From an uncultured Rickettsiales bacterium (GTDB lineage Bacteria; Pseudomonadota; Alphaproteobacteria; Rickettsiales; UBA1997), in NCBI GenBank assembly GCA_944391075.1, contig CALXSG010000005.1, forward strand, positions 1 to 60,897: a stretch of DNA of 60,897 nt. The letters are read 5' to 3'. The notes under the pieces are model-generated. The model did not search any database, was not told the DNA's origin, and was given only the letters and a program-made list of their open reading frames with translations. Numbering within the stretch: position 1 is the stretch's first letter; each line of letters begins with the position of its first letter. Shown in pieces: positions 10,163 to 23,224 of the stretch. A program made the translations under genes and the position numbers.

Positions 10163-11650
10163 TTATTCATCTTCTTCAAAATCTAAAGATAATTGATTCT
10201 TAACTTTTCCCTTATCAGCAATACTTATAATTTTATTAGCTGTTGATAACATATTACCTTTACCCATAGAAATGTAGTTTCTAGCTGACATATAAGCATC
10301 TTTTGCCTTATCTAAACTATCACCAATCTTTAACATATCCTGAGAAAATTTTTCAACTTTAGCATATAGTTTTTTAGACAAATCTATAATATCAGCAATA
10401 TACTTATTTTGATTTTCAATATTCCATAAGTGTTCAATCATTCTTAAAACTGGCATAAATGAAGATGTAGTAACTAATGCAACTTTATTTTTTGTGGCAA
10501 CATCAAATATATTTTTATCAAACTTTATTGCATCAATATAAGCGCCCTCAACAGCCACAAACATAAATACAAAATCAGGTGTATCATTTGCAACTTTTTT
10601 ATTATATTGCTTATAAACATTTTGATATTCTTTTGCACCCAATTCTTTAATATGATTTTTTATATCTTCACAATACATTTTTAAATATGAATTTTTTTCA
10701 TCTTGATTATTTGAATTAATATATTTTTCATAATTTACCATCGATACTTTTGAATCCACTATCAAAATTCTATCTTCCGGTAGTTTGATTAAAAAATCTA
10801 AAAAGAAATCTTTTCCATCTTCATTTTTAATATTATATTGTTTAAAAAAGCTAATATTTTCTTCTAGACCTGACATTTCAAGTAAATTTTGTAATTGAAA
10901 TTCTCCCCAATTTCCTTGTGCTTTTTTGTCACCTTTTAAGGCAGTAGCTAAATTATCAGCCTTTTTTCCAATATCATTTGTTGTGTTAACTAAATGTTTA
11001 ATATTTTCTTCAATCTTAATAGTATTAGCATTATTGCCATCTTGCACTTGTTGTATTTTTTCTTTAAATTCTTTTATATCTTTATTTAATGGAATTAATA
11101 AATGTCCCAAACTTTCATTTTGTTCTTTATTGAAACTTTCCTTTTGTTCCTTAATAATTTCATTAGAAATAACTTTAAATTGGTTTTTAATTTGTTCTTG
11201 CAATTGCATCAAATTTTCAATATTTTTCTTTTTTTCTTCCAACTCCGTAAAGTTTTTCTTATTTTCTATTTCTATTTCCTTCAACCTACTTTCAAGCTCA
11301 TTTTTAACTTTATTCTCAGCCTTCAACCTTTCATTTTCACCTTCTAAAAAACTATTTTGACTTTTTAAATTAGTAATACTTCCGTCTCTATTTTCAATAA
11401 CACCTTCTAACTCATCAATCCTCTTATCTTGTTCCTCCAACTTTTTCATCAAAGCAACATACTCCCCTTGCAACCTTGCATACTCTATTTGACAATTTTG
11501 CAACTCCTTTTCCTTACTCTTATACTCATCAGTCAACTCAGGGCTTTGCACCCCACCCCTAACCTGCTTATACATCACCACACACACAATGCACAATATC
11601 AAACACAAAATACTCAAAACAGCAACAACTAATGTCATACTTACACTCAC
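10163..11650 (-). CDS. rmuC: DNA recombination protein RmuC (GTG start)
   Basis: N-terminal TM segment, long coiled coil, then an RmuC-type nuclease region (GNWGEFQLQNLLEMSGL, PDFVFMFVAVEGAY). Confidence 0.85.
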   Translation of the reverse strand: MSVSMTLVVAVLSILCLILCIVCVVMYKQVRGGVQSPELTDEYKSKEKELQNCQIEYARLQGEYVALMKKLEEQDKRIDELEGVIENRDGSITNLKSQNSFLEGENERLKAENKVKNELESRLKEIEIENKKNFTELEEKKKNIENLMQLQEQIKNQFKVISNEIIKEQKESFNKEQNESLGHLLIPLNKDIKEFKEKIQQVQDGNNANTIKIEENIKHLVNTTNDIGKKADNLATALKGDKKAQGNWGEFQLQNLLEMSGLEENISFFKQYNIKNEDGKDFFLDFLIKLPEDRILIVDSKVSMVNYEKYINSNNQDEKNSYLKMYCEDIKNHIKELGAKEYQNVYKQYNKKVANDTPDFVFMFVAVEGAYIDAIKFDKNIFDVATKNKVALVTTSSFMPVLRMIEHLWNIENQNKYIADIIDLSKKLYAKVEKFSQDMLKIGDSLDKAKDAYMSARNYISMGKGNMLSTANKIISIADKGKVKNQLSLDFEEDE

Positions 11651-11714
11651 AATTTTATTCCACTATCACCATAATACCACCAACATTTTTATTTACAACA
11701 CAAAAACCTCACCA

Positions 11715-11770
11715 CCACAAAAAATTTTAATTCTATCACCACAAAATTTTTCCGGAAGTACAAAAAGTAA
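11715..11770 (-). repeat. Inverted-orientation copy of the ~55-bp TACTTCC motif family
   Basis: The - strand reads TTTTTGTACTTCCGGAAAAATTTTGTGGTGATAGAATTAAAATTTTTT. This aligns with the copies at 51561, 58993, 59261 and 59641. Confidence 0.55.
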
Positions 11771-11793
11771 AAAAATTTCAAATCGTAAAACTA

Positions 11794-11895
11794 GTAACGC
11801 ATTGACTATAAAAATAGATTCGCTAAAATAATTTATAGGATTTTTCTGAACAGTCATTTGTTATAGCTTGACTATAAAAATAGATTCGCTAAAAT
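11794..11895 (+). CRISPR. Two decayed CRISPR repeats (36 nt each) with one 30-nt spacer
   Basis: The units at 11794-11829 and 11860-11895 are 66 nt apart, the same period as the main array. The second starts with GTTATAGCTTG, the exact first 11 nt of the canonical repeat. The last 25 nt of both units are identical to each other. Confidence 0.65.
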
Positions 11896-12522
11896 AAAGA
11901 AAGTGAAGTTCCTAGTGAAGTTAAGAGAAAATTTAGAGATTTAGCTTTAAGTATACAAAAAACAGCTATACTAGAAGCATTAGAAATGGTAGAAGAATGA
12001 TATATAACGGATTAGAAATTAAAGGACACCAGAGTAAAAAAATAGAACAAGTAGTCCAATATTTTAAGAAAAATAATATTAATACTCTTAAAGATATAGA
12101 AGATATAAAGAGTAATAATGTTGAGGTGTTTAAGTTTTGGAATGAAACTGGAATAGATATAGAAAGTTTAGAGATAAGAAAATATATTAAACCTAGAACA
12201 GATTTTAGTTTTTACTGCCCTCAAAGTGAAATTATATATGAAGATATAGATATAGAAAAAACTTTGGGATTTAGAATAATTAAGTTTATAGTTAGTTTCT
12301 TTTTATTAATAGGAATGCTTGGTTATTTAATAATAATTTTTAGTATTAATATAGTTAGAATGATTTAAGGAGAAAATATGAGTAATAATGAAGAGAAGAC
12401 ATCTAGTTTAGATAAGTATATTAAAGAAGTTTGGAAAGATTATAGAGATAGTTTTGAAGAAGATGCTGCTAAAGAAGTAGGTATAGTAGTAGAGGATTAT
12501 GTAAGACACCCAGACACAGGCT
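11896..12522 (+). other. 627-bp coding fragment bounded on both sides by CRISPR repeats
   Basis: Three co-directional, tightly packed ORFs. The first has no start because its frame opens at the repeat boundary. The last runs into repeat 1. Confidence 0.6.
11997..12368 (+). CDS. Hypothetical small protein with a C-terminal TM helix
   Basis: 123-aa ORF. Its ATG overlaps the stop of the preceding truncated ORF (ATGA). No recognisable motif. Confidence 0.45.
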   Translation: MIYNGLEIKGHQSKKIEQVVQYFKKNNINTLKDIEDIKSNNVEVFKFWNETGIDIESLEIRKYIKPRTDFSFYCPQSEIIYEDIDIEKTLGFRIIKFIVSFFLLIGMLGYLIIIFSINIVRMI

Positions 12523-12542
12523 GTTATAGCTTGCGTTTTTAA
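12378..12542 (+). pseudogene. ORF truncated by the first CRISPR repeat
   Basis: An AAGGAG RBS lies 6 nt upstream of the ATG. The reading frame enters repeat 1 at 12523 and stops at a TAA inside the repeat. Confidence 0.5.
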
Positions 12543-15330
12543 TTTCCTATGTTAGAATGTAGGCGTGGTGTGAAAGTCAAGTTATTATGTTATAGCTTGC
12601 GTTTTTAATTTCCTATGTTAGAATTTAGAGTTTATAGTAACATTTAAAGCTTTTGTTATAGCTTGCGTTTTTAATTTCCTATGTTAGAATGGATATCTTC
12701 AACTGTAGCAGCAGTCGCGGGTTATAGCTTGCGTTTTTAATTTCCTATGTTAGAATTATCCTAAAAATGCGAATACAGGATTGTAAGTTATAGCTTGCGT
12801 TTTTAATTTCCTATGTTAGAATAAACCTCTGTAAGCCTCTATATCATTATAGGTTATAGCTTGCGTTTTTAATTTCCTATGTTAGAATAGCCCCAAAAGT
12901 GTTAGAACCAGTAGACAGGTTATAGCTTGCGTTTTTAATTTCCTATGTTAGAATTATTATGAATAAGTTTGAGACAATTAAAGAGTTATAGCTTGCGTTT
13001 TTAATTTCCTATGTTAGAATTCTGGTTGGAGTGTAGAAGATATAATTTTAGTTATAGCTTGCGTTTTTAATTTCCTATGTTAGAATGTAGGCTCTACAAT
13101 AGTCGTTAATAATTCAGTTATAGCTTGCGTTTTTAATTTCCTATGTTAGAATAGTTTTATAAAACGAGTTAGTAGTTTTTATGTTATAGCTTGCGTTTTT
13201 AATTTCCTATGTTAGAATTAGAATAACACTTGTTGCTCACCAAGTTAAGTTATAGCTTGCGTTTTTAATTTCCTATGTTAGAATATATATAAATTTTATA
13301 ATACATCAGATAATGTTATAGCTTGCGTTTTTAATTTCCTATGTTAGAATATTCCATAATTACGTGTTATACAATTTTTTGTTATAGCTTGCGTTTTTAA
13401 TTTCCTATGTTAGAATAAAATAGATTATGACCCGCAGATTAATATTGTTATAGCTTGCGTTTTTAATTTCCTATGTTAGAATAGTTCCACGGTTTACCGC
13501 CAGCGTAAACTGGTTATAGCTTGCGTTTTTAATTTCCTATGTTAGAATGAAGCAGGAGTAGAAGTAGTAGATGGTGTTGTTATAGCTTGCGTTTTTAATT
13601 TCCTATGTTAGAATGCAAATCCACTACAACTAGATAGTGTTTCTGTTATAGCTTGCGTTTTTAATTTCCTATGTTAGAATTAAAAATTTATTAATAAAAA
13701 AGGAGAAATAGTTATAGCTTGCGTTTTTAATTTCCTATGTTAGAATTTTTAGAAGTGATAAAACAGAAGCTAAATCGTTATAGCTTGCGTTTTTAATTTC
13801 CTATGTTAGAATTGCTCTTGTCTTAAAGAGTTAAACACTATAGTTATAGCTTGCGTTTTTAATTTCCTATGTTAGAATATAATATGAGCCAGTAAGAGCA
13901 CCAGCGAAGTTATAGCTTGCGTTTTTAATTTCCTATGTTAGAATTAATGAGGAAGCAAATAAGCAAATTGAGGCGTTATAGCTTGCGTTTTTAATTTCCT
14001 ATGTTAGAATAAATAAATTTTTATCAAGGCTTTACAAGCCGTTATAGCTTGCGTTTTTAATTTCCTATGTTAGAATAATAACAATCGGCACTCTTAATTT
14101 ACAGAAGTTATAGCTTGCGTTTTTAATTTCCTATGTTAGAATTAAGTAAATAAAAACTCGGGGTTTTGACACGTTATAGCTTGCGTTTTTAATTTCCTAT
14201 GTTAGAATCTTTATTTATTAATACTCTGCTTCAAATTCGTTATAGCTTGCGTTTTTAATTTCCTATGTTAGAATTATAATGAGGTAAAAAATGTCAAAAG
14301 AAAAGTTATAGCTTGCGTTTTTAATTTCCTATGTTAGAATTTACTTTTATGGTTGCGAGCAAGCAGCAAGGTTATAGCTTGCGTTTTTAATTTCCTATGT
14401 TAGAATATATATGTTGGAGATTCTAATGTATCTTTAGTTATAGCTTGCGTTTTTAATTTCCTATGTTAGAATTTAAACGATATAATTAAAGATGTAGACT
14501 TAGTTATAGCTTGCGTTTTTAATTTCCTATGTTAGAATAGACAGAGATAGAGTAATAGAACTTTATATGTTATAGCTTGCGTTTTTAATTTCCTATGTTA
14601 GAATTGATGATATAAATACAGAACGTGAACATCTGTTATAGCTTGCGTTTTTAATTTCCTATGTTAGAATTATTGTTTAAATAAATATCAATAAATATAA
14701 GTTATAGCTTGCGTTTTTAATTTCCTATGTTAGAATAATGGAAAGTTAGTATCAATAGAGCTACAAGTTATAGCTTGCGTTTTTAATTTCCTATGTTAGA
14801 ATAGAAGCAAGAAAAGCTGCTAAGGCTGCTAAGTTATAGCTTGCGTTTTTAATTTCCTATGTTAGAATCGCAAAAGTTGCTTGTATGTTATTTAATAAGT
14901 TATAGCTTGCGTTTTTAATTTCCTATGTTAGAATTGCACCAGTGTAGAAGTCAATTTTATGTGTGTTATAGCTTGCGTTTTTAATTTCCTATGTTAGAAT
15001 TACAAAGTAGTAATATAAATACAAGTACTTGTTATAGCTTGCGTTTTTAATTTCCTATGTTAGAATGGAAGTCTAATTGTTTCTGCTTCATCGTCTGTTA
15101 TAGCTTGCGTTTTTAATTTCCTATGTTAGAATTTAAACGATATAATTAAAGATGTAGATTTAGTTATAGCTTGCGTTTTTAATTTCCTATGTTAGAATCT
15201 TAATGAAATAATAAAAGATGTAGATTTAGTTATAGCTTGCGTTTTTAATTTCCTATGTTAGAATTTAAAATACGATATATACGTTTAAACAGTTGTTATA
15301 GCTTGCGTTTTTAATTTCCTATGTTAGAAT
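12523..15330 (+). CRISPR. CRISPR array: 43 repeats of 36 nt and 42 spacers of 30 nt
   Basis: Repeat GTTATAGCTTGCGTTTTTAATTTCCTATGTTAGAAT with an exact 66-nt period from 12523 to 15295. The strand is assigned from tracrRNA complementarity and the downstream terminator. Confidence 0.97.
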
Positions 15331-15342
15331 AGCAAGCTTTTT

Positions 15343-15379
15343 AGCCCTTGATAATCAAGGGCTTGTTTTGTATTTTTTT
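15343..15379 (+). terminator. Rho-independent terminator at the cas-proximal end of the array
   Basis: AGCCCTTGA-taa-TCAAGGGCT followed by TGTTTTGTATTTTTTT. The T tract is present on the + strand only. Confidence 0.7.
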
Positions 15380-15441
15380 AAAGAAAAAATGAGAATTTTT
15401 TAGAAAAATTTATAAAAATTTTTCATTTTTTTTGAAATTTA

Positions 15442-15774
15442 TTAAAATAATAAAAGTTGTTGTGGTCCAACTTTTTTCTCTTGTTTTGTTTGTTCTCCAA
15501 CTAAAATTTCCATACTGGCATATTGTTTTTCTGTAACTGTTAAAACTCTTATACTGCCATGTGGTGGTATTTGTTTTTTTATATTTTGCAAGTGAGTTTC
15601 TACATTACAATCATTTCTAATTATTCTAGAATAAACAGATAATTGCAACATTTGAAAGCCATCATTTAACAAAATTTTTCTAAATTTATTTGCCTGTTTC
15701 ATCATTTCTTTTGTTTTTACAGGCAAGTCAAAAAATACTATCATTCTCATAAATTTATCCCTTGTATAGTCCAT
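15442..15774 (-). CDS. cas2: CRISPR-associated endoribonuclease Cas2
   Basis: MRMIVFFDLPV... is typical of type II Cas2. The ATG at 15774 has a GAGG RBS; the ORF-track start at 15786 is a TTG. Confidence 0.85.
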   Translation of the reverse strand: MDYTRDKFMRMIVFFDLPVKTKEMMKQANKFRKILLNDGFQMLQLSVYSRIIRNDCNVETHLQNIKKQIPPHGSIRVLTVTEKQYASMEILVGEQTKQEKKVGPQQLLLF

Positions 15775-15782
15775 AAAATACC

Positions 15783-16685
15783 TCAAAATAATAAATCCTT
15801 AGGAAAAGTTGGTAAAATAAAATTTTTTGCTTCATTATTTTTTGTAATATTTAATAGATTTTCAGTTAATAATTGTGTAGCATACATCATATTATAATTT
15901 TGTCCGCCATAATTTACTTCATAAAAAATAATTTCTATTAGTTTTTGTTTATCTTCTATTGTGAGTGTGTCATCTTTATCATCAATGTCATATAATTTTT
16001 TTACTCTAAAATCTATAATTCCTCTAAATGGTTCTATTAAATCATCAGCTAAATTAAAAGAATTATACATATTACAATGATGCAAACCAAAACAAGTAAT
16101 AAAACCCAATGCAGATAAATTTTTTGCTATTAAACTTCTGGTAATCATATAAACATAATTTAAAGCAGAATTTACTTTTGTATTATCATGTCTTATAAAA
16201 TTATTATAATATACTTTCCAATATTCTTTTGCTGCTCTTCCTTCAATATTAGATGTATCACCCGATAAAACTTCTTTTGATAAACCAATCAAATATTTGT
16301 ATAAATTATTATTTATATTTTTTATACATAATGCTTGATTTTGTATTTTTTGTTGAACTATTTTTTGCCACAATCTTTTTTTAAAAGCTTCACTCCAATC
16401 TCTTTGTAAGAAGGCAGTTTCTGTATTTTTATAATATTGCATATATGGCAAAAAAATTCCATTTGGTGTATGTGAATTATCAGTAGTTAAAACAACAATT
16501 TTATTATTTGCAATTTCCGATAATAAATAACCAGTAATATTTATTTGTGGTGTATCTATTACAATAGCTCCTATATCTTCTAATGGAACTTGCAATTCCT
16601 CTTCATCTTGTGGTTGATAAACTAATTGATTATTTTTGTAAGATATTTTACAAGGTTTTGTAATTAAAATTATTCTCCAAGACAT
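15783..16685 (-). CDS. cas1: CRISPR-associated endonuclease Cas1 (type II)
   Basis: Starts MSWRIILI as type II Cas1 proteins do. The longer ORF-track start (16721) would lie inside the terminator hairpin. Confidence 0.9.
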   Translation of the reverse strand: MSWRIILITKPCKISYKNNQLVYQPQDEEELQVPLEDIGAIVIDTPQINITGYLLSEIANNKIVVLTTDNSHTPNGIFLPYMQYYKNTETAFLQRDWSEAFKKRLWQKIVQQKIQNQALCIKNINNNLYKYLIGLSKEVLSGDTSNIEGRAAKEYWKVYYNNFIRHDNTKVNSALNYVYMITRSLIAKNLSALGFITCFGLHHCNMYNSFNLADDLIEPFRGIIDFRVKKLYDIDDKDDTLTIEDKQKLIEIIFYEVNYGGQNYNMMYATQLLTENLLNITKNNEAKNFILPTFPKDLLF

Positions 16686-16704
16686 GTTAATTAAAAATTT
16701 ATTA

Positions 16705-16729
16705 ATAAAAAAGGCACTCAATAGTGCCT
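16705..16729 (-). terminator. Hairpin plus T tract between cas9 and cas1
   Basis: On the - strand: AGGCACT-attg-AGTGCCT followed by TTTTTT, 9 nt after the cas9 stop. Confidence 0.6.
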
Positions 16730-16737
16730 AATAAAAA

Positions 16738-19700
16738 TTAATTTTTTTGTTTTTTGCATTTTTTCTCAATTATACCTTGTCGCTTTTCTTGCTTTACTTC
16801 GTTTATATAACCTAATGGATCTACTTGAAATTTTTTTAAAGATATTATACTACCTAAAGATATTCTAACTTCTTTGTCATATTTATTGCCAACTAAATAT
16901 TTTTTACTTCTATCTAATGATTCTATTTTAATTGTATTAGCTTGACTTGCATCAAAAGAACAAAAATAACCAAAATATTGTTCGTTTTTCTTTGTTTTAA
17001 AATAAATCAACTCATCTTTATATAAACTAAAAACAAAATGTTTATTGTAAAATTTATCATCTTCTTTTTCTTCAATTGGAAAATCAATATTGTGTGGTTT
17101 TGATAAGGTTTGCAATTTATCTTTTACAAAATCGGCAATGTAAATTGGAACTGCATAATATTTGTTATCTTTGTAAAATATATCAACTCTTGGCATGCCA
17201 CCATTTTGAGCAATACCATTATTTACTTCAACTCCACCACCAGTATAATTAGAAACTAGTTTTACACTTTTAATTTGTGGAGTTTTATTTTCATCATATT
17301 CTCCATTTTTATTAGTCATATAAATAGGTTCTTTAAATGCTTTTTCAGCATCTCCATTAAATTTTTCTAATCTATTTTTCAATATATTATATAAATTTTT
17401 AGAAGCACCATCTTTATCTTGCAAATTTTCTATATTTTTTAATGTTAATTTTGATAATTTAGTTTTAGTATAAGTTATATTTTCTACTTTATCTAAACCA
17501 ATTATTGTTGCATTATGAGCTTCTCCTGTAATTTTTCTTCGCGGCATTCGTGAAACAATATTTTGACCCTTTTCTGGCAAACCAGTTGTTTCATTTGTTT
17601 TTGTTAAATTATTTACTTTTTTATCAACATCACTTACAAAATTTTCCCATATACCATTTAATTTACAATGCCCTTCTAATATATGTCTAGATTCAATTAA
17701 ATTATACCATTTGCTTTCTTCTTCTAATTCTTTAATTTTTTCTTCAATTTCTTCTGTTTTTGATAAAGATTTTAATTGATTTATTTTATCAAAAATTTCT
17801 TTTTGTTGTTGTTTCACATCTTCATTTCTTTGTGTAGCATGTAAAGCAGAAATCATTTGACACATTGATTGAGTAGCACAAGCAATAATAATAGCATCAA
17901 CTACATGATGTGTGTCGCCATCACTTCTAATTTTTTCACCTAAGCCCCATATATGTCTTAAATAAGATGTTAATTGTCCCGGTCTAACTTGAATTTTATT
18001 TTTTATTTTATCATTTTCTTTAAATTTTAAGCTTTTAGATAAATATTTTACTAAATATTTTGATATATAACTTGTATCACATAAATTTCTAGCTTTCCAT
18101 TTATCTACAAAATCATAACTTTCAGTTGTTAAATTTTTTCTTTTTATATATGGTAAACTTTGTATACTCCATATAATTTTTTTCCATTCTTCCCAATTGC
18201 TATCTTTTAAATATTCAAAAGGTATTCTGTTTTGTTTGTTTTGATTTTCTTTTGGTAAAACTAAAACTTTATTATTTAAAGAATCATCAAAACTTTTTGA
18301 ATAAGGTAAAATATGATCTATTTCACAACATTTATCATCAGTTAAAATTTCCCTTAAATCTGGTAATTTTTCTAATGGATTAGAATATAAACTTTTTCCT
18401 TCTTGTTGCTTGTATAGCCTTAATTTTAAAATTTGTTTATCAGTTATTACATCTTCATTTACATGTAATATTAAAGAAGCTTCTTTTTTTAATTCTTCTT
18501 TTAAATCTCTAAATTCTTTTTGACCTTTTTCAATTTTAATTCTTTCATCAGCTGATTTTCCTAAATCTCTTGTAAATTCTATATTTATTTGATCAAAATT
18601 TCCATATTTTCTAATAATTGCATTTATTACTTTTCTTGTTTGTGATAGAGTTCTTTTTACTACTGGATTTGTTAATTTAGCAATATCATTTTCTTTTGTA
18701 TATTCTTCTAATGTAGGCAAAAAATCTTGTTGATTGTTTTTTGAATCATCTTTAAATTCATATTTACACTCTAAACAAGCTTTATCATAAGTCAAACCTT
18801 TTTCTAAATATGGTAATAAATTTCTAATAGCTTTACAAGATATATGAATAAAATTACTAGTTTGAATATTTAAACATTTATCAATAATATCTTCTGGGAT
18901 ATTATGATCTTGCATATATTTTTTACTTTTTTCATCATTTTTTTCATATGACAAAGCTTCCATTATAATATCTATTATAAATGGTGAATCTTTATCCTTT
19001 TCTATATATTTTTTAAATTCATCATCATTTAATACATCTTTAACTTTATGATAACCAACCATTGAATATATTTTTACATTTTCTATATCATTTTTGCTTT
19101 TATATTTATATTCACCTTTATCATTTTTAAAAAATACTTTTCTAGCTTTATCTGGTTCTTCTATAAAAAAGCCTTCTAATTTATATTTTTCAATATTTTT
19201 TTTATCTGTATTAGATAATGTTAATTCTGTTGAATTTTTAGCTTTTTTAAATTCAACATATTCAGCTTGATAATAATCTAAACCTTTAAATTTATAATTA
19301 TCATCAAGTTTTAATTCTTTTCTAATGTCTTTATATTTTACTTCTTTTTTAGTTTTAAATAATTCTACTAAACTATTAAATTTTTTATTGTAATCAACAT
19401 CTTTTAGATCTAATACTTTTAAATTATTAATTTTTGTATAAACATTAAATAATTCAGCAGAATAAGATTCTTTTGGTGCTCTAAATTCACCTTTTTCAAA
19501 TAAACAAAAACCAACCATATCTTTGATTGATTTAGTTTCTTTTTCATAATTAAATAATTTTAAAACTTCATTTTCAAAATTATTATCTAATTTACTAAAA
19601 CCAAATTCTCTTTGTTTTTCAAAAATTCTTTTTATTTCAAATTCATTTTGACTTCTTCCAATACAATGATCATAATTTTGATGTTCGTTTATTATTTTTT

Positions 19701-20280
19701 CATTATCATAATTTAAACTTTCAGCTTTTAATTTTCCATAATAATAACCAGGTGTTTTATCATCTCCTAATTCTTGTTTTAATTTATCAATAGCAGTTTT
19801 CATTTTGCCAGAATCACCTTCTTTTTCTTCGCTTTTTCTTCTGCTAGCCCAACCTCTATGCTTTACTATATGACACAAAATTCTACTTAATTCTATTTCA
19901 TTTAATTTTCTTTCTAATGCTTCTTTTCTTAAAATCCATACATCTTTAAAATCATTTTTATCTAATGTTTTTTTAAAAAATTTATCATCAATTTTAATAT
20001 TAAATTGTTTTTCACATAATTCTCTAATTTTTTTACATCTAGCTGACTTTCTAAATAATCTCCTTCTTCCTAATCTTGCTTCTCTTCTAGGTTCAGCTGA
20101 TGGTGATTTATCTTTTTGATTTTCACACGGATCAAAAATTCTTACACCACAATCAATAATTTTTCCATTTTTAAGAAAAACTTCACCATTATTATTAACA
20201 AAATCCAAATCATCAATCTCGGTAATCGCCCAACCGATACTTGAAATACCTAAGTCTAATCCTAATATTCGTTTTAACAT
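16738..20280 (-). CDS. cas9: Cas9 endonuclease, 1180 aa
   Basis: RuvC-I [13 protein letters not shown], Arg-rich bridge helix [41 protein letters not shown]...NR and RuvC-III [14 protein letters not shown]. There is no csn2 or cas4 in the locus. Confidence 0.95.
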   Translation of the reverse strand: [1180 protein letters not shown]

Positions 20281-20356
20281 ATGTTTTTATATATATTATT
20301 GATATACTATATATAAAAAAGATTATTAAAAATTGCAATATGTTTATTGAAAAGAC

Positions 20357-20386
20357 TTGACTTTAAGAAATTTATATTTTTATAAT
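20357..20386 (+). promoter_or_regulatory. Sigma70-type promoter of the tracrRNA
   Basis: TTGACT (20357-20362), 18-nt spacer, TATAAT (20381-20386). Confidence 0.7.
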
Positions 20387-20392
20387 CTTATT

Positions 20393-20524
20393 GTTTTAAC
20401 ATAGGAAATTAAAACAGCTTGCTATAATAAGAAGAGATTCGTAAGGTCGCCCATCCTTTATCTAACTTTTGGGCTACTATTTTTATTATAGTATTTCAGG
20501 TGAAGTTTTGCTTCACCTTTTTTT
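20393..20524 (+). ncRNA. tracrRNA
   Basis: The anti-repeat TTTTAACATAGGAAATTAAAACAGCTTGCTATAA is complementary to the repeat: an 18-nt perfect block, an internal bulge, then 7 nt. It is followed by AATAAGAAG... and the terminator AGGTGAAG-ttttg-CTTCACCT plus a T run. The 5' end is only estimated from the promoter. Confidence 0.8.
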
Positions 20525-20715
20525 ATGCAATTAATAAATCTTATTGTCCTATTGTGTATTATTTATTTATGTGATTGTGTGTTGATAAATTGTGCCATGA
20601 GTATATGTTGGACAATTTTTAATTAAATTTAAGTTAAAATTAAATTAAAATTAAAATACTAATTAAAATATTAATTAAAAAAATAAAATATAAATGGAGA
20701 AATAGCAAGAAATGT

Positions 20716-20752
20716 AAAAATATAAAAACCACATAATGTGATTTTATGTTGT
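20716..20752 (-). terminator. Probable terminator after ftsK
   Basis: On the - strand: ACAACATAA-aatcaca-TTATGTGGT (one mismatch) followed by TTTTATATTTTT. Confidence 0.45.
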
Positions 20753-20764
20753 GTGTTTTAAATG

Positions 20765-23224
20765 CTAGTCGTCATCATTATCAATTAATATTTCTCTTTT
20801 CCCTGTGTTGCCTGGACTACTTAAAATGCCTTTTCTTTCCATTTCTTCAATGATGTTTGCAGCTTTGTTGTAGCCGATTCTTAATTGTCTTTGAATATAA
20901 CTTATGCTACATTTTTTATCTCTCTTAATAATCGCTAGCGCTTGTTGAAATAATGCTTTGTCTTTATCCCCACCATATGAATCATCATCAAAACTATCAT
21001 TGTCAGCATTATCATCAATATATTCATCACTCTTTAAAACTTCATTTACATAATTAGGTTCAAAACCTTGTGATTTTATGAAATTTACAATTTTTTCAAC
21101 TTCATCATCAGAAACAAATGGTCCATGTGCTCTAATAATTTTTCCACCACCTGCCATAAATAACATATCCCCCATACCTAATAGTTGTTCTGCACCCTGC
21201 TCACCAAGAATTGTTCTACTATCAATTTTTGATACAACTTGAAATGACATTCTAGTAGGGAAGTTAGCCTTAATAACACCAGTAATAACATCAACAGAAG
21301 GCCTTTGTGTAGCCATAATTATATGAATACCAGCAGCTCTTGCTTTTTGTGCAATTCTTTGAATAGATGCTTCTATTTCTTTTCCTGCTGTAATCATTAA
21401 ATCAGCCATCTCGTCAACAATTACCACAATATAAGGCATTTCTTTTGTTTCAATTTCTTTTTCTTCATAAATTGGTTCATCTGTTTCAATATCAAAACCA
21501 GTTTGAACTCTTCTAGTTAACTTAGTACCATTCTTAATAGCATTATTAAGTTTTTCATTATAACCAGCGATATTTCTAACACCTAAACTCGCCATAATTC
21601 TATATCTGTCTTCCATTTCTCTACATACCCATCTTAAAGCTGTAATTGCTTTTGTAGGTTCTGTAACAACCGGAGTTAGTAAATGTGGTATACCTTCATA
21701 AACTGATAATTCAAGCATTTTAGGATCAATCATTATAAATTTACATTGATCCGGAGTCATTTTATATAATAAAGATGTAATCATTGTATTAATAGCAACA
21801 GATTTTCCAGAACCAGTAGTTCCAGCTACAAGTAAATGTGGCATTTTTGCTAAATCATAAACTACTGCATCACCACCAATATCACTACCAATAATTAACG
21901 GCAATTGTGCTTTACTATTTTTATATTCATTAGATTCTAATAAATCTCTAATATAAATTGTTTCTCTTTGTTTATTAGGTAATTCAATACCCATAGCATT
22001 TTTTCCAGGAATAACAGAAATTCTAGCAGAAACAGCACTCATAGATCTAGCAATATCATCCGAAAGTCCAATAACTCTTGAAGATTTAGTACCGGCAGAT
22101 GGTTCAAATTCATGTAATGTAATAATAGGGCCAGCTCTAACATTTAGCATTTCACCCTTAACACCAAAATCCCTTAAAACTTTAATTAATTGTTTTGATT
22201 GTTCTAACAATTCTTCCCTTGATACAGAAATTTTATTATTATTTTTATTTTTTGATAATAAATTTATATTAGGTAGCTTATATTTAACATACTTTCTAAT
22301 ATCTAGTTTATTTTTTTCTACTTCTTTCTTTATATTAACATTTTCATCTTGTTCCTCTATTTTTTCTTCTTTTTCTGTTTTTTTGCCAAATAGACTAAAC
22401 AAAGTTTTATCTTTTTTATTATTTCTTAAATTATCAAAATCTTCATCATCATTACATATTATATCTTGAGTATTTTTATATTGTAATTCACTATGTTTTA
22501 GATTTTCTCCAAGATTTAAATCTTCTTCATCTCTTTCATCATCGATAAATACATATTCACCTTTATTTTTAGTAAAAAATTTAATTAATGAAATTCTAAA
22601 TGATTTTGTGGTAAATAATTTAAATAAGAAAATTATTCCATTTAATGCAAATTTTAAGATTTTTTTAAATAATCTATACATTTTAGCAAAGGTCACTAAC
22701 CACCAATTTTTTCTAATATCAATTAAATATGATAAAGATATCATAAAAATTAAAGAAAATAAAATTGCTATTGAATATTCAGGTGTATCGTAAAAAACAT
22801 AATTAGAAAAGAAACTTCCCAATAAACCACCACATTTATCATTTGCGCAATATTGAGAAATAACAAAATCGTTTAATAAAATTGATGAAGATGCCAAAAC
22901 TCCAATACATGCTAAGATTTTTTGTATTTTATTATAAATAGTTCTATTAAAAATAATTTTAAAACCTAAAATAATAAATAATATAGATAATATTATAGAT
23001 GAAAGTCCTATAAGTTGTAATACTAAATCAGCAAGATATGAACCAAAAGTACCAAGATAATTTTTAATATTTTTATATGTAGAAATATTATTGAAAGAAG
23101 GATCATTCTCATTATATGAAAATACAGAAATACATGTAGCAAATGAAATTAAAATTAAAAATGTTCCAAAAATATAATTTTTAATTTTTATAAACTTATT
23201 AATTTTTTTATCTTTAAACTTCAT
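20765..23224 (-). CDS. ftsK: DNA translocase FtsK
   Basis: N-terminal TM helices, Walker A GTTGSGKSV, VIVDEMADLM, and a C-terminal gamma wHTH (ISYIQRQLRIGYNKAANIIEEME). Confidence 0.95.
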   Translation of the reverse strand: MKFKDKKINKFIKIKNYIFGTFLILISFATCISVFSYNENDPSFNNISTYKNIKNYLGTFGSYLADLVLQLIGLSSIILSILFIILGFKIIFNRTIYNKIQKILACIGVLASSSILLNDFVISQYCANDKCGGLLGSFFSNYVFYDTPEYSIAILFSLIFMISLSYLIDIRKNWWLVTFAKMYRLFKKILKFALNGIIFLFKLFTTKSFRISLIKFFTKNKGEYVFIDDERDEEDLNLGENLKHSELQYKNTQDIICNDDEDFDNLRNNKKDKTLFSLFGKKTEKEEKIEEQDENVNIKKEVEKNKLDIRKYVKYKLPNINLLSKNKNNNKISVSREELLEQSKQLIKVLRDFGVKGEMLNVRAGPIITLHEFEPSAGTKSSRVIGLSDDIARSMSAVSARISVIPGKNAMGIELPNKQRETIYIRDLLESNEYKNSKAQLPLIIGSDIGGDAVVYDLAKMPHLLVAGTTGSGKSVAINTMITSLLYKMTPDQCKFIMIDPKMLELSVYEGIPHLLTPVVTEPTKAITALRWVCREMEDRYRIMASLGVRNIAGYNEKLNNAIKNGTKLTRRVQTGFDIETDEPIYEEKEIETKEMPYIVVIVDEMADLMITAGKEIEASIQRIAQKARAAGIHIIMATQRPSVDVITGVIKANFPTRMSFQVVSKIDSRTILGEQGAEQLLGMGDMLFMAGGGKIIRAHGPFVSDDEVEKIVNFIKSQGFEPNYVNEVLKSDEYIDDNADNDSFDDDSYGGDKDKALFQQALAIIKRDKKCSISYIQRQLRIGYNKAANIIEEMERKGILSSPGNTGKREILIDNDDD

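Follow-up and report, generated by a model that had tools for sequence, protein, structure and literature searches.

Repeats of a second CRISPR family and a phage operon fragment at the cas-distal end of a type II-C array, a probable relic in an uncultured Rickettsiales bacterium

The CRISPR-Cas9 locus of an uncultured Rickettsiales bacterium raises a question at the cas-distal end of its array. Two repeat-like units with diverged sequences stand there, followed by 627 bp of coding DNA in the place of a 30-nucleotide (nt) spacer. What are these sequences, how did they come to lie in the array, and do they serve immunity? The locus is part of a contig of 60,897 nt (GenBank assembly GCA_944391075.1, CALXSG010000005.1; G+C content ~25%), called the window here. 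An original prediction, made from the DNA letters, had read the units as decayed, promoter-like copies of the canonical repeat. It took the 627 bp for an operon fragment left by recombination with a mobile element that carried a repeat-like sequence. The account that we favour, as probable rather than certain, is a different one: the region would be the fossil trailer of a different CRISPR array, its block of phage DNA would derive from an extended spacer of that array, and the present locus would be a recombinant formed by a crossover inside the block. The elements concerned are the following, where R is the canonical repeat, V the second type of unit and PAM stands for protospacer-adjacent motif.

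11794-11829, plus strand: V1', the terminal and presumably oldest V-family repeat (GTAACGCATTGACTATAAAAATAGATTCGCTAAAAT), promoter-like (TTGACT-16-TAAAAT)
11830-11859, plus strand: 30-nt spacer between V1' and V2 (AATTTATAGGATTTTTCTGAACAGTCATTT)
11860-11895, plus strand: V2, an intact V-family repeat with an embedded promoter (GTTATAGCTTGACTATAAAAATAGATTCGCTAAAAT)
11896-12522, plus strand: phage-derived block, an oversized pseudo-spacer of 627 bp (79.6% identity to phage contig L010:5900-6523)
12523-15330, plus strand: main R array of 43 identical 36-nt repeats and 42 spacers of 30 nt, from repeat finding

The two V units lie 66 nt apart around a 30-nt spacer, as the original prediction had described, and R (GTTATAGCTTGCGTTTTTAATTTCCTATGTTAGAAT) recurs with the same 66-nt period downstream of cas2. 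Type II-C arrays gain spacers at the last, cas-proximal repeat, and their cas-distal first repeat is the oldest (PMC12080349, Feussner et al. 2025); with this polarity, the V units and the block would sit at the old, non-growing end of the array, and the block would fill the second-oldest spacer slot. The first repeat of II-C arrays is often mutated, typically in its head (PMC12080349). V1' carries five substitutions in its first 8 nt relative to V, and an identical V1' unit is present in the sister strain L038. The 30-nt spacer behind it matches nothing in the phage loci or in the rest of the window, and its slot is filled by another 30-nt spacer in L038.

The units share an exact 30-nt stretch (11802-11831 = 11868-11897), and a 28-nt core is matched twice in the window against 0.00 expected from shuffles. 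A promoter scan of 11500-12800 returned the two V units as its best matches, each agreeing with the consensus at 10/12 positions (TTGACT-16 nt-TAAAAT), in line with the earlier claim that each is a near-consensus promoter pointing into the array. R ends in TGTTAGAAT, an extended -10-like element (hexamer TAGAAT); the -35 is weak, and R does not figure among the consensus matches. The head of V2, GTTATAGCTTG, is identical to the first 11 nt of R. Of the 36 positions of V2, 14 differ from R, all among the last 25, and V and R have in common only the 11-nt head and the -10-like end.

The V units are members of a genuine second type II-C repeat family. Sister strains L038-L041 have the same lipocalin-ATPase-rmuC neighbourhood as the window. 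Their order is V1', a different 30-nt spacer, V2, a block of 488 bp and then a V array that runs to the contig end. In L038, L039 and L040 the V arrays directly after the block comprise at least 21-24 identical 36-mers with spacers of 29-31 nt. V copies occur a further 2-3 times in each of L004 and L015, two relatives with a closely similar Cas9, and V is identical in every copy across strains, the V1' head aside. The V-array spacers adjoining the block are common to the strains and the far spacers are strain-specific, which is the pattern expected if the V arrays grew recently at their far end. The original prediction had seen in the second unit a chimera of the canonical head with a tail shared by the first unit. 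Both the 11-nt head and the shared tail are there, but the unit is an intact V-family repeat and not a decayed or chimeric R.

The two repeat families are directed at the same targets. At least six spacers of the window array (s1, s7, s16, s30/s40, s34 and s35) match one tailed-phage family, and five V spacers match the same family with 0-4 mismatches (one at 30/30, two with one mismatch). The 3' flanks of the V protospacers read T/A-A/G-AAAA in 5/5 cases, a V-type PAM of NRAAAA. The R-type PAM, taken from 11 protospacers of the window, L004 and L015 arrays, is NNNNCAA. Closely related strains are thus seen to use two Cas9 PAMs against one phage family, NRAAAA with V arrays and NNNNCAA with R arrays. 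Because the PAMs differ, V is probably served by a different Cas9 with its own trans-activating CRISPR RNA (tracrRNA), whose anti-repeat would match a sequence beginning ATTTTAGCGAATCTATTTTTATAG. In L017, a more remote relative whose Cas1 is 78% identical, a degenerate unit with the ending ATTCGCTAAAAT precedes the first R-like repeat by exactly 30 nt, so that V-like units stand at the old end of R-like arrays in more than one lineage.

Pairing with the tracrRNA of the window separates the two families.

20389-20523, plus strand: predicted tracrRNA, upstream of cas9 on the opposite strand; 5' end approximate

The candidate promoter of this RNA (TTGACT-17 nt-TATAAT) lies at 20358-20386, its anti-repeat at ~20394-20428 (35 nt with two internal 2-nt mismatches), and a strong terminator ends at ~20523. 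The predicted duplex with R reaches -38.4 kcal/mol against -9.7 +/- 2.8 for shuffled controls. V2 gives -10.4 kcal/mol, no better than the shuffles, and no V anti-repeat was found in the window. Other roles for the V units were considered. They are not a minus-strand tracrRNA anti-repeat, since only the 8-11-nt head pairs and the real tracrRNA lies upstream of cas9. Nor are they a phage promoter fused to a repeat head, as the phage early promoters read TTGACA-N17-TATAAT, unlike the V tail. A CRISPR-derived regulatory mini-array of the CreA/CreR kind does not fit either: the spacer at 11830-11859 has no match in the window, and V2 is unpaired with the tracrRNA.

The 627-bp block is a fragment of a phage early operon. 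Its open reading frames (ORFs) are as follows.

11893-12000, plus strand: ORF-a remnant without a start codon, about the last 34 codons of a phage protein of 140-142 amino acids (aa)
11997-12368, plus strand: ORF-b, intact, 123 aa, a phage early protein
12378-12542, plus strand: ORF-c remnant of 54 aa, the first 49 codons of an acidic 97-aa phage protein followed by a TAA inside repeat 1

Homology to the phage contig L010 spans window positions 11896-12524 only and ends at both repeat borders. The frame of ORF-a opens at 11893 and overlaps ORF-b in an ATGA at 11997-12000; ORF-c of the window aligns to residues 1-49 of 97 of the full phage protein. In the complete phage operon the three proteins measure 140-142, 120-123 and 97-107 aa. 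The description of 627 bp in place of a 30-nt spacer, with three ORFs cut off at both repeat borders, is borne out by these coordinates and frames, by the loss of phage homology at the borders and by the longer phage proteins (142/120/97 aa). The view of the block as a mobile-element operon fragment in a spacer position at the cas-distal end likewise holds, the element being a phage.

ORF-b has 21 homologues with 54-100% identity. Those outside CRISPR loci (54-86% identity) lie on contigs packed with small co-directional genes, and the phage contigs encode a terminase large subunit (E = 4.5e-29), an ATP-dependent DNA ligase, a SNF2-type helicase, a dUTPase, GTP cyclohydrolase I and PTPS. In two of the target phages (L030:12756-13819 and L035:8696-9759) GTP cyclohydrolase I and the QueD-like PTPS stand beside the dUTPase and the SNF2 helicase. 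This gene set is a hint that the phage DNA may carry a 7-deazaguanine modification, and such a modification could influence restriction or targeting by Cas9. The predicted structure of ORF-b (predicted local distance difference test score, pLDDT, 79) is a small alpha/beta domain with a long hydrophobic C-terminal helix at residues 90-122. The model agrees with the C-terminal transmembrane helix that the original prediction had proposed, and this helix is probably membrane-inserted.

Searching for the block in the DNA of phages and relatives, as had been suggested, yielded matches in phage contigs and in the CRISPR loci of related strains. Public phage DNA held nothing similar to 11650-12560, plasmids gave a single 42-nt chance hit, and no relatives of ORF-b were found in IMG/VR. 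The ORF-b model has no match among PDB and viral folds, and the three block peptides have no significant hit in Pfam or PHROGs. Nothing supports the anti-CRISPR or regulator role about which the original prediction had speculated; the absence of similarity leaves room for an anti-CRISPR among the peptides. None of the spacers of any array fetched matches the block over more than ~14 nt ungapped, so far as self-targeting is concerned.

Comparing array ends among relatives, as also suggested, revealed V arrays and junction variants in L038-L041, L004 and L015. The best-defined variants are these.

Window: rmuC site, block of 627 bp, right end ...ACAGGCT followed by R1, C-terminal ORF-b allele as in phages L030/L035
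L038: rmuC site, block of 488 bp, right end ...ATGAGTATTTTT followed by V, C-terminal ORF-b allele as in phage L010
L004: ychF site, block of 488 bp, right end ...ATGAGTATTTTT followed by V, C-terminal ORF-b allele as in phage L010
L015: ychF site, block of 737 bp, right end ...GATGCGAA followed by V, C-terminal ORF-b allele as in phages L030/L035

The left junction is identical in all four loci, and the right ends differ. The tail of ORF-a shows 97-99% identity among the CRISPR copies against 91-92% to the phages, which points to a single origin of the block. The C-terminal half of ORF-b exists as two alleles that are ~57% identical to each other. Their distribution across loci indicates that the block has swapped segments with phages or between loci.

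L004 and L015 carry a Cas9 ~93% and a Cas1 99% identical to those of the window and an identical R repeat, with atp genes and ychF as neighbours. The order in both is V, 440 bp, V, block, V, a 97-nt perfect hairpin and then the R array. Homology between the window and L015 is limited to 11860-12522 and the array interior up to 20534, just past the tracrRNA terminator; on the left, the DNA in common with the cassette of the other chromosomal site begins with V2 (11860). Given this limited homology and the different neighbourhood, the whole cassette resides at two chromosomal sites, rmuC-ftsK and atp-ychF. The block was inherited with the array and is present at both, and the event was not confined to this genome. 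No transposase or integrase was noticed next to the cassette. As to an empty rmuC-ftsK site, the RmuC relatives at 85% and 67% identity stand among different genes and lack CRISPR, and a clean empty site was not found.

The L004/L015 arrangement has two further features. The 97-nt hairpin between the last V and the first R (L004:6426-6521, L015:13144-13239; 27-bp stem) has no counterpart in the window. The two strains carry its loop in opposite orientations; the element has therefore flipped. The 440-bp stretch between two V units (L004:5171-5865 and the same region of L015) is a second oversized 'spacer'. It holds a very acidic 74-aa ORF that enters the outermost V unit and stops at a TAG in the V head, and that is a pseudogene in L015. 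ORF-c of L015 likewise stops at a TAG in the V head.

How the block entered the array is suggested by its left end.

11896-11925, plus strand: first 30 nt of the block, the proposed original V-type spacer from ORF-a (AAAGAAAGTGAAGTTCCTAGTGAAGTTAAG)
11926-11931, plus strand: AGAAAA, a match to the V-type PAM (N-R-A-A-A-A), present in the window and L038

With 627 bp (488 or 737 bp in relatives) the block lies outside the ordinary spacer range of 29-31 nt. Its first 30 nt are of spacer length and are followed by AGAAAA, which suggests an origin of the block in a normal 30-nt V-type spacer acquired from phage ORF-a. A motif of the NRAAAA type occurs at ~2% of positions in this DNA. Four phage variants show 2-3 mismatches to 11896-11925 and read AAAAAG, AGAAAG or AGAGAA at the PAM site. 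We treat this evidence as suggestive only, because it comes from one site that was found after other junction models had failed. A spacer followed by a PAM is seen for the first 30 nt only; the right end of the window block precedes neither PAM in the phages, and in none of the three right-end variants does a clean V-type PAM come after the last 30 nt.

Among the models that failed, a double crossover in which both block ends were former R-type spacers was rejected, as the 30 nt of neither end precede NNNNCAA in phages. A Cas9 cut at the left end was dropped too, there being no R-type PAM in register on either strand. A hairpin that would hide the head of repeat 1 at the junction between block and repeat 1 was also rejected: its -10.0 kcal/mol compares with -6.4 +/- 2.6 at the other 42 junctions, four of which are as strong or stronger, and it is no outlier.

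From such a seed the block would then have grown at its PAM end to take in the neighbouring phage genes. One route would be recombination of the spacer with its counterpart in a phage that infected the cell; exchange of this kind between phage genomes and the spacers that target them is documented, as far as the citing paper describes it (Varble 2019, cited in 10.1101/2020.10.09.333658). Alternatively, a prespacer may have been integrated whose PAM-side end was never trimmed, and the two routes are not separable here. The aberrant very long integration that the original prediction had offered as its alternative accordingly stays viable, with some support from the PAM 30 nt into the block, but it is not told apart from recombination. 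Later deletions would have given the differing right ends (488, 627 and 737 bp) of the relatives. In L010 the phage sequence at the position of the window right junction, GGCTGTATATTAGC, loosely resembles the repeat head GTTATAGC, and microhomology may have played a part at that junction.

A further step would have assembled the present locus.

12113-12188, plus strand: interval with the inferred crossover; identical to L038 on its left, the other ORF-b allele on its right

The window equals L038 from rmuC through V1', V2 and 11896-12112 (217 bp), save the 30-nt spacer. It diverges from L038 after 12112 and beyond 12188 carries the allele shared with L015 and phages L030/L035; in this right part, in the R array and in the cas genes it belongs to the L015 type. 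Most simply, a crossover within the block common to both would have joined a V-type rmuC locus to an R-type cassette of array, cas9-cas1-cas2 and tracrRNA, and the remaining V repeats would have been lost at the crossover or later. A donor with the exact right junction of the window is absent from the sampled loci.

Several observations weigh against this account. The three different right ends each lie 0-6 nt from the 5' border of a repeat, which random deletion does not predict, and in the sampled phages none of them precedes a clean V-type or R-type PAM. At the left end the PAM is seen at one site, with a chance expectation of ~2% for a length of 30 nt and ~6% if 29-31 nt are allowed. No strain with a 30-nt progenitor spacer before V was found in JGI metagenomes, a collection that lacks V altogether. 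The V-type PAM rests on five protospacers only. A V-type cas9 or tracrRNA was not found, the V contigs ending inside the array, and the two Cas9 relatives inspected (65-68% identity) have R-like repeats. Finally, ORF-b is intact in all copies with dN/dS (the ratio of nonsynonymous to synonymous substitution rates) of 0.3-0.5, and a neutral fossil is not proven.

This last point feeds the rival that survives best, although we regard it as unlikely: the block would be kept because it is useful, with a membrane-anchored ORF-b, expressed from the V2 promoter, protecting against the phage family, for example by superinfection exclusion. It concerns present function and is compatible with the origin proposed above. 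ORF-b is the sole frame intact in all four junction variants, ORF-a and ORF-c being cut variously; it stands directly downstream of a promoter with 10/12 consensus positions; and the block has persisted at two chromosomal sites and outlasted a switch from one array type to another. Between the CRISPR-resident copies of the window and L015 its dN/dS is 0.48, below 1, but this value rests on 27 substitutions and exceeds the 0.15 seen from phage to phage, and part of the divergence may have arisen in phages before the allele exchange. The value and the intact frame are compatible with weak constraint and no proof of it. Translation poses a further difficulty. In phages ORF-b probably needs translational coupling, because its start lies in the ATGA overlap with ORF-a, and upstream of the window ORF-b there is only a 4-codon remnant ORF (M-V-E-E) without a clear ribosome-binding site. 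No family or fold match points to a function.

A wider form of this idea, which makes the block a working part as a portable homology arm, as a captured ORF-b for innate phage exclusion, or as both, we hold to be rather improbable; it keeps some weight because the crossover maps inside the block and ORF-b is intact in every variant. As a homology arm, the block would allow one crossover to swap a whole cas9-tracrRNA-array module between cassettes with different repeats, Cas9s and PAMs, and so would let the lineage change PAM specificity against the same phage family. As a captured gene, ORF-b driven by a CRISPR repeat promoter would give innate exclusion of that phage.

The explanation preferred by the original prediction fares worse. 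It supposes that a mobile element with a repeat-like site, be it a solitary repeat, a mini-array or a mimic attachment site, recombined with or integrated into the array and was later shortened by deletions. Repeats do indeed flank the block left and right in L038, L004 and L015, junctions lie at repeat borders in three independent right-end variants, and a temperate streptococcal phage integrates into CRISPR repeats (10.1101/2020.10.09.333658). But no phage carrying such a repeat was found: neither the V core nor the first 25 nt of R has an exact match in IMG/VR, and no V-like sequence is present in 13 phage loci (L010-014, L030-035 and L042-043; 2-16 kb per contig). Ten of these loci were checked for exact matches, and L010, L030 and L035 were scanned with up to 8 mismatches. 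For L042 and L043 the check was scripted only and showed no V repeat upstream of the block start. A phage-borne V would stand directly upstream of the block-start sequence AAAGAAAGTG; the lone 11-nt head match, in L010, is 5 kb away and at chance level, and phage ORF-a continues across the junction point. The sampled phage regions look lytic, with ligase, helicase, dUTPase and 7-deazaguanine synthesis genes and no integrase seen. The idea also leaves the PAM at +31 unexplained. We consider a repeat-carrying element quite unlikely.

That the units are decayed copies of R and the block a random insertion into a decaying array end is very improbable. First repeats of II-C arrays are often mutated (PMC12080349), and the degenerate unit of the diverged L017 could be read in this way. 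The V tail, however, differs from R at 14/25 positions and yet is constant across strains, with its own long arrays and PAM; V2 is identical to array-forming V copies elsewhere, and the V arrays of L038-L040 already contradict the reading. V1' does fit the picture of few substitutions in a single copy at the old end, but relative to V and not to R. The insertion is not random either, showing an exact left border, a spacer-length stretch and then a PAM. Metagenome misjoins at the junctions of block and repeats are scarcely credible: repeats are classic sites of misassembly and the Logan contig L002 has its array collapsed, but both junctions recur at 100% identity in L001, L002 and L003 from separate samples and assemblers (over 909-951 nt in L001 and L002), so they are not assembly errors, and the ORF-b protein is found on ~20 contigs with the same neighbours, with related junction variants in other strains.

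On our account, the region as a fossil trailer, what does it do at present? The V units and the block would give no working guide, because V is unpaired with the tracrRNA and the block end has no R-type PAM in phages. A read-through RNA into repeat 1 would carry an ORF-c guide, whose phage target does not stand before NNNNCAA. Most likely the region does nothing for immunity now. The V promoters probably still fire, in which case V1' would yield an orphan short RNA and V2 an ORF-b mRNA that runs into repeat 1; their near-consensus sequence is the reason why ORF-b may be transcribed.

The remainder of the locus has a type II-C layout.

15331-15441, plus strand: cas-proximal flank of the R array, with a terminator-like hairpin (GCCCTTGATAATCAAGGGC) and then a T run
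15442-15786, minus strand: cas2, Pfam match
15783-16721, minus strand: cas1, Pfam match
16738-20280, minus strand: cas9, 1180 aa, Pfam HNH_4 and RuvC_III

The cas9-cas1-cas2 genes, without csn2 or cas4, make up a II-C gene set and are flanked by ftsK and rmuC. Cas1 relatives with 36-40% identity were found in Neisseria and Pasteurellaceae, and the closest public genomes are metagenome-assembled genomes labelled 'uncultured Rickettsiales'. As judged from the predicted anti-repeat and from the PAM 3' of the protospacers, the R array is probably read opposite to the cas genes. By analogy with the polarity of other II-C systems (PMC12080349), the flank at 15331-15441 would be the acquisition-side leader. 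The V arrays, with spacers common to the strains beside the block and strain-specific ones far from it, fit this polarity; among the window, L015 and L004, the R arrays have too few spacers in common to read it. An Rfam search of 11000-21000 gave zero family matches, tracrRNA included.

Some spacers of the R array are related to each other or to the locus. Spacers 30 (14473-14502) and 40 (15133-15162) differ at one base, and spacer 41 (15199-15228) is a variant of them with 5-6 mismatches. All three thus record a single phage site, as it apparently stood in different variants of the phage. Spacer 18 (13681-13710) matches 23 consecutive nt at the start of cas1 (16692-16714), near the cas9-cas1 junction. 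Seven nt of its PAM-proximal end mismatch the cas1 site, and it also has partial matches to phage intergenic regions; its sequence resembles an AT-rich intergenic ribosome-binding-site region. On the other side of the V units, the stretch 11400-11790 (plus strand) is strikingly G-poor and C/A-rich, with a GC skew of -0.44 over 11001-12000. It covers the part of rmuC for the N-terminal membrane and coiled-coil regions (minus strand) and the rmuC upstream region, in which CACCACCAC-like runs occur.

The locus can be set beside known systems. It resembles the Campylobacter and Neisseria II-C arrays (PMC12080349) in having cas9-cas1-cas2 only and an array that is probably read opposite to the cas genes, in repeats that end in a -10-like hexamer (R TAGAAT, V TAAAAT), and in a presumably oldest unit, V1', with mutations in the head that would pair with tracrRNA. 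The 27-bp-stem hairpin just upstream of the first R in L004 and L015 recalls the guide-sequestering hairpins of those arrays. Unlike there, the old-end units belong to another repeat family with its own arrays and PAM, and they are separated from the working array by 627 bp of phage DNA.

There are likenesses to spacer-phage recombination, as far as the citing paper conveys it: phage DNA is contiguous with a stretch of spacer length in a PAM context, the same cassette occurs at two sites, as expected if hybrids help transfer, and the allele swaps in the block point to repeated exchange with phages. That work of Varble et al., published in 2019 in Nat Microbiol, is said to concern events in the laboratory that gave transducing particles, in a staphylococcal system of type II-A or III-A. 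The present case differs in being a stable, inherited natural relic in a II-C array, which may stem from recombination or from an untrimmed prespacer.

As with phiAP1.1 of Streptococcus pyogenes (10.1101/2020.10.09.333658), phage DNA between two repeats disrupts CRISPR RNA units. Here, by contrast, neither a repeat-like attachment site nor an integrase nor a whole prophage was found, the source phage looks lytic, and only 0.5-0.7 kb of an early operon is left. 'Long spacers' of at least 100 nt in surveyed arrays are mostly transposon-like (Kupczok et al. 2015, PMC4524480). The block shares with them a size far over spacer length between two repeats, but it is a piece of a phage operon, is not mobile and starts like a spacer, with a flanking PAM. 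The same survey reports recombination between homologous arrays and gain of foreign arrays. The array described here is similarly a mosaic of parts with different histories; it differs in that these parts have different repeat families and PAMs, and in that the crossover lies inside a phage fragment rather than in a repeat or spacer. In the literature retrieved we found no description of this combination, a spacer-like, PAM-flanked phage fragment fixed in a trailer across two repeat families and serving as a crossover point.

If our reading holds, the locus would be a natural case of phage DNA entering an array from a spacer-sized, PAM-flanked seed, a process otherwise known mainly from laboratory work on spacer-phage recombination. 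For annotation it carries two warnings: 'degenerate terminal repeats' can be remnants of another system, and oversized 'spacers' can hold intact genes behind repeat-borne promoters. As arrays of two II-C families with different PAMs can be spliced together, related strains appear to exchange whole Cas9 modules against the same phages. Because the region most likely does nothing for immunity in this strain, its interest is evolutionary and not mechanistic: a probably inactive relic here, it records how phage DNA and whole CRISPR modules recombine into arrays.

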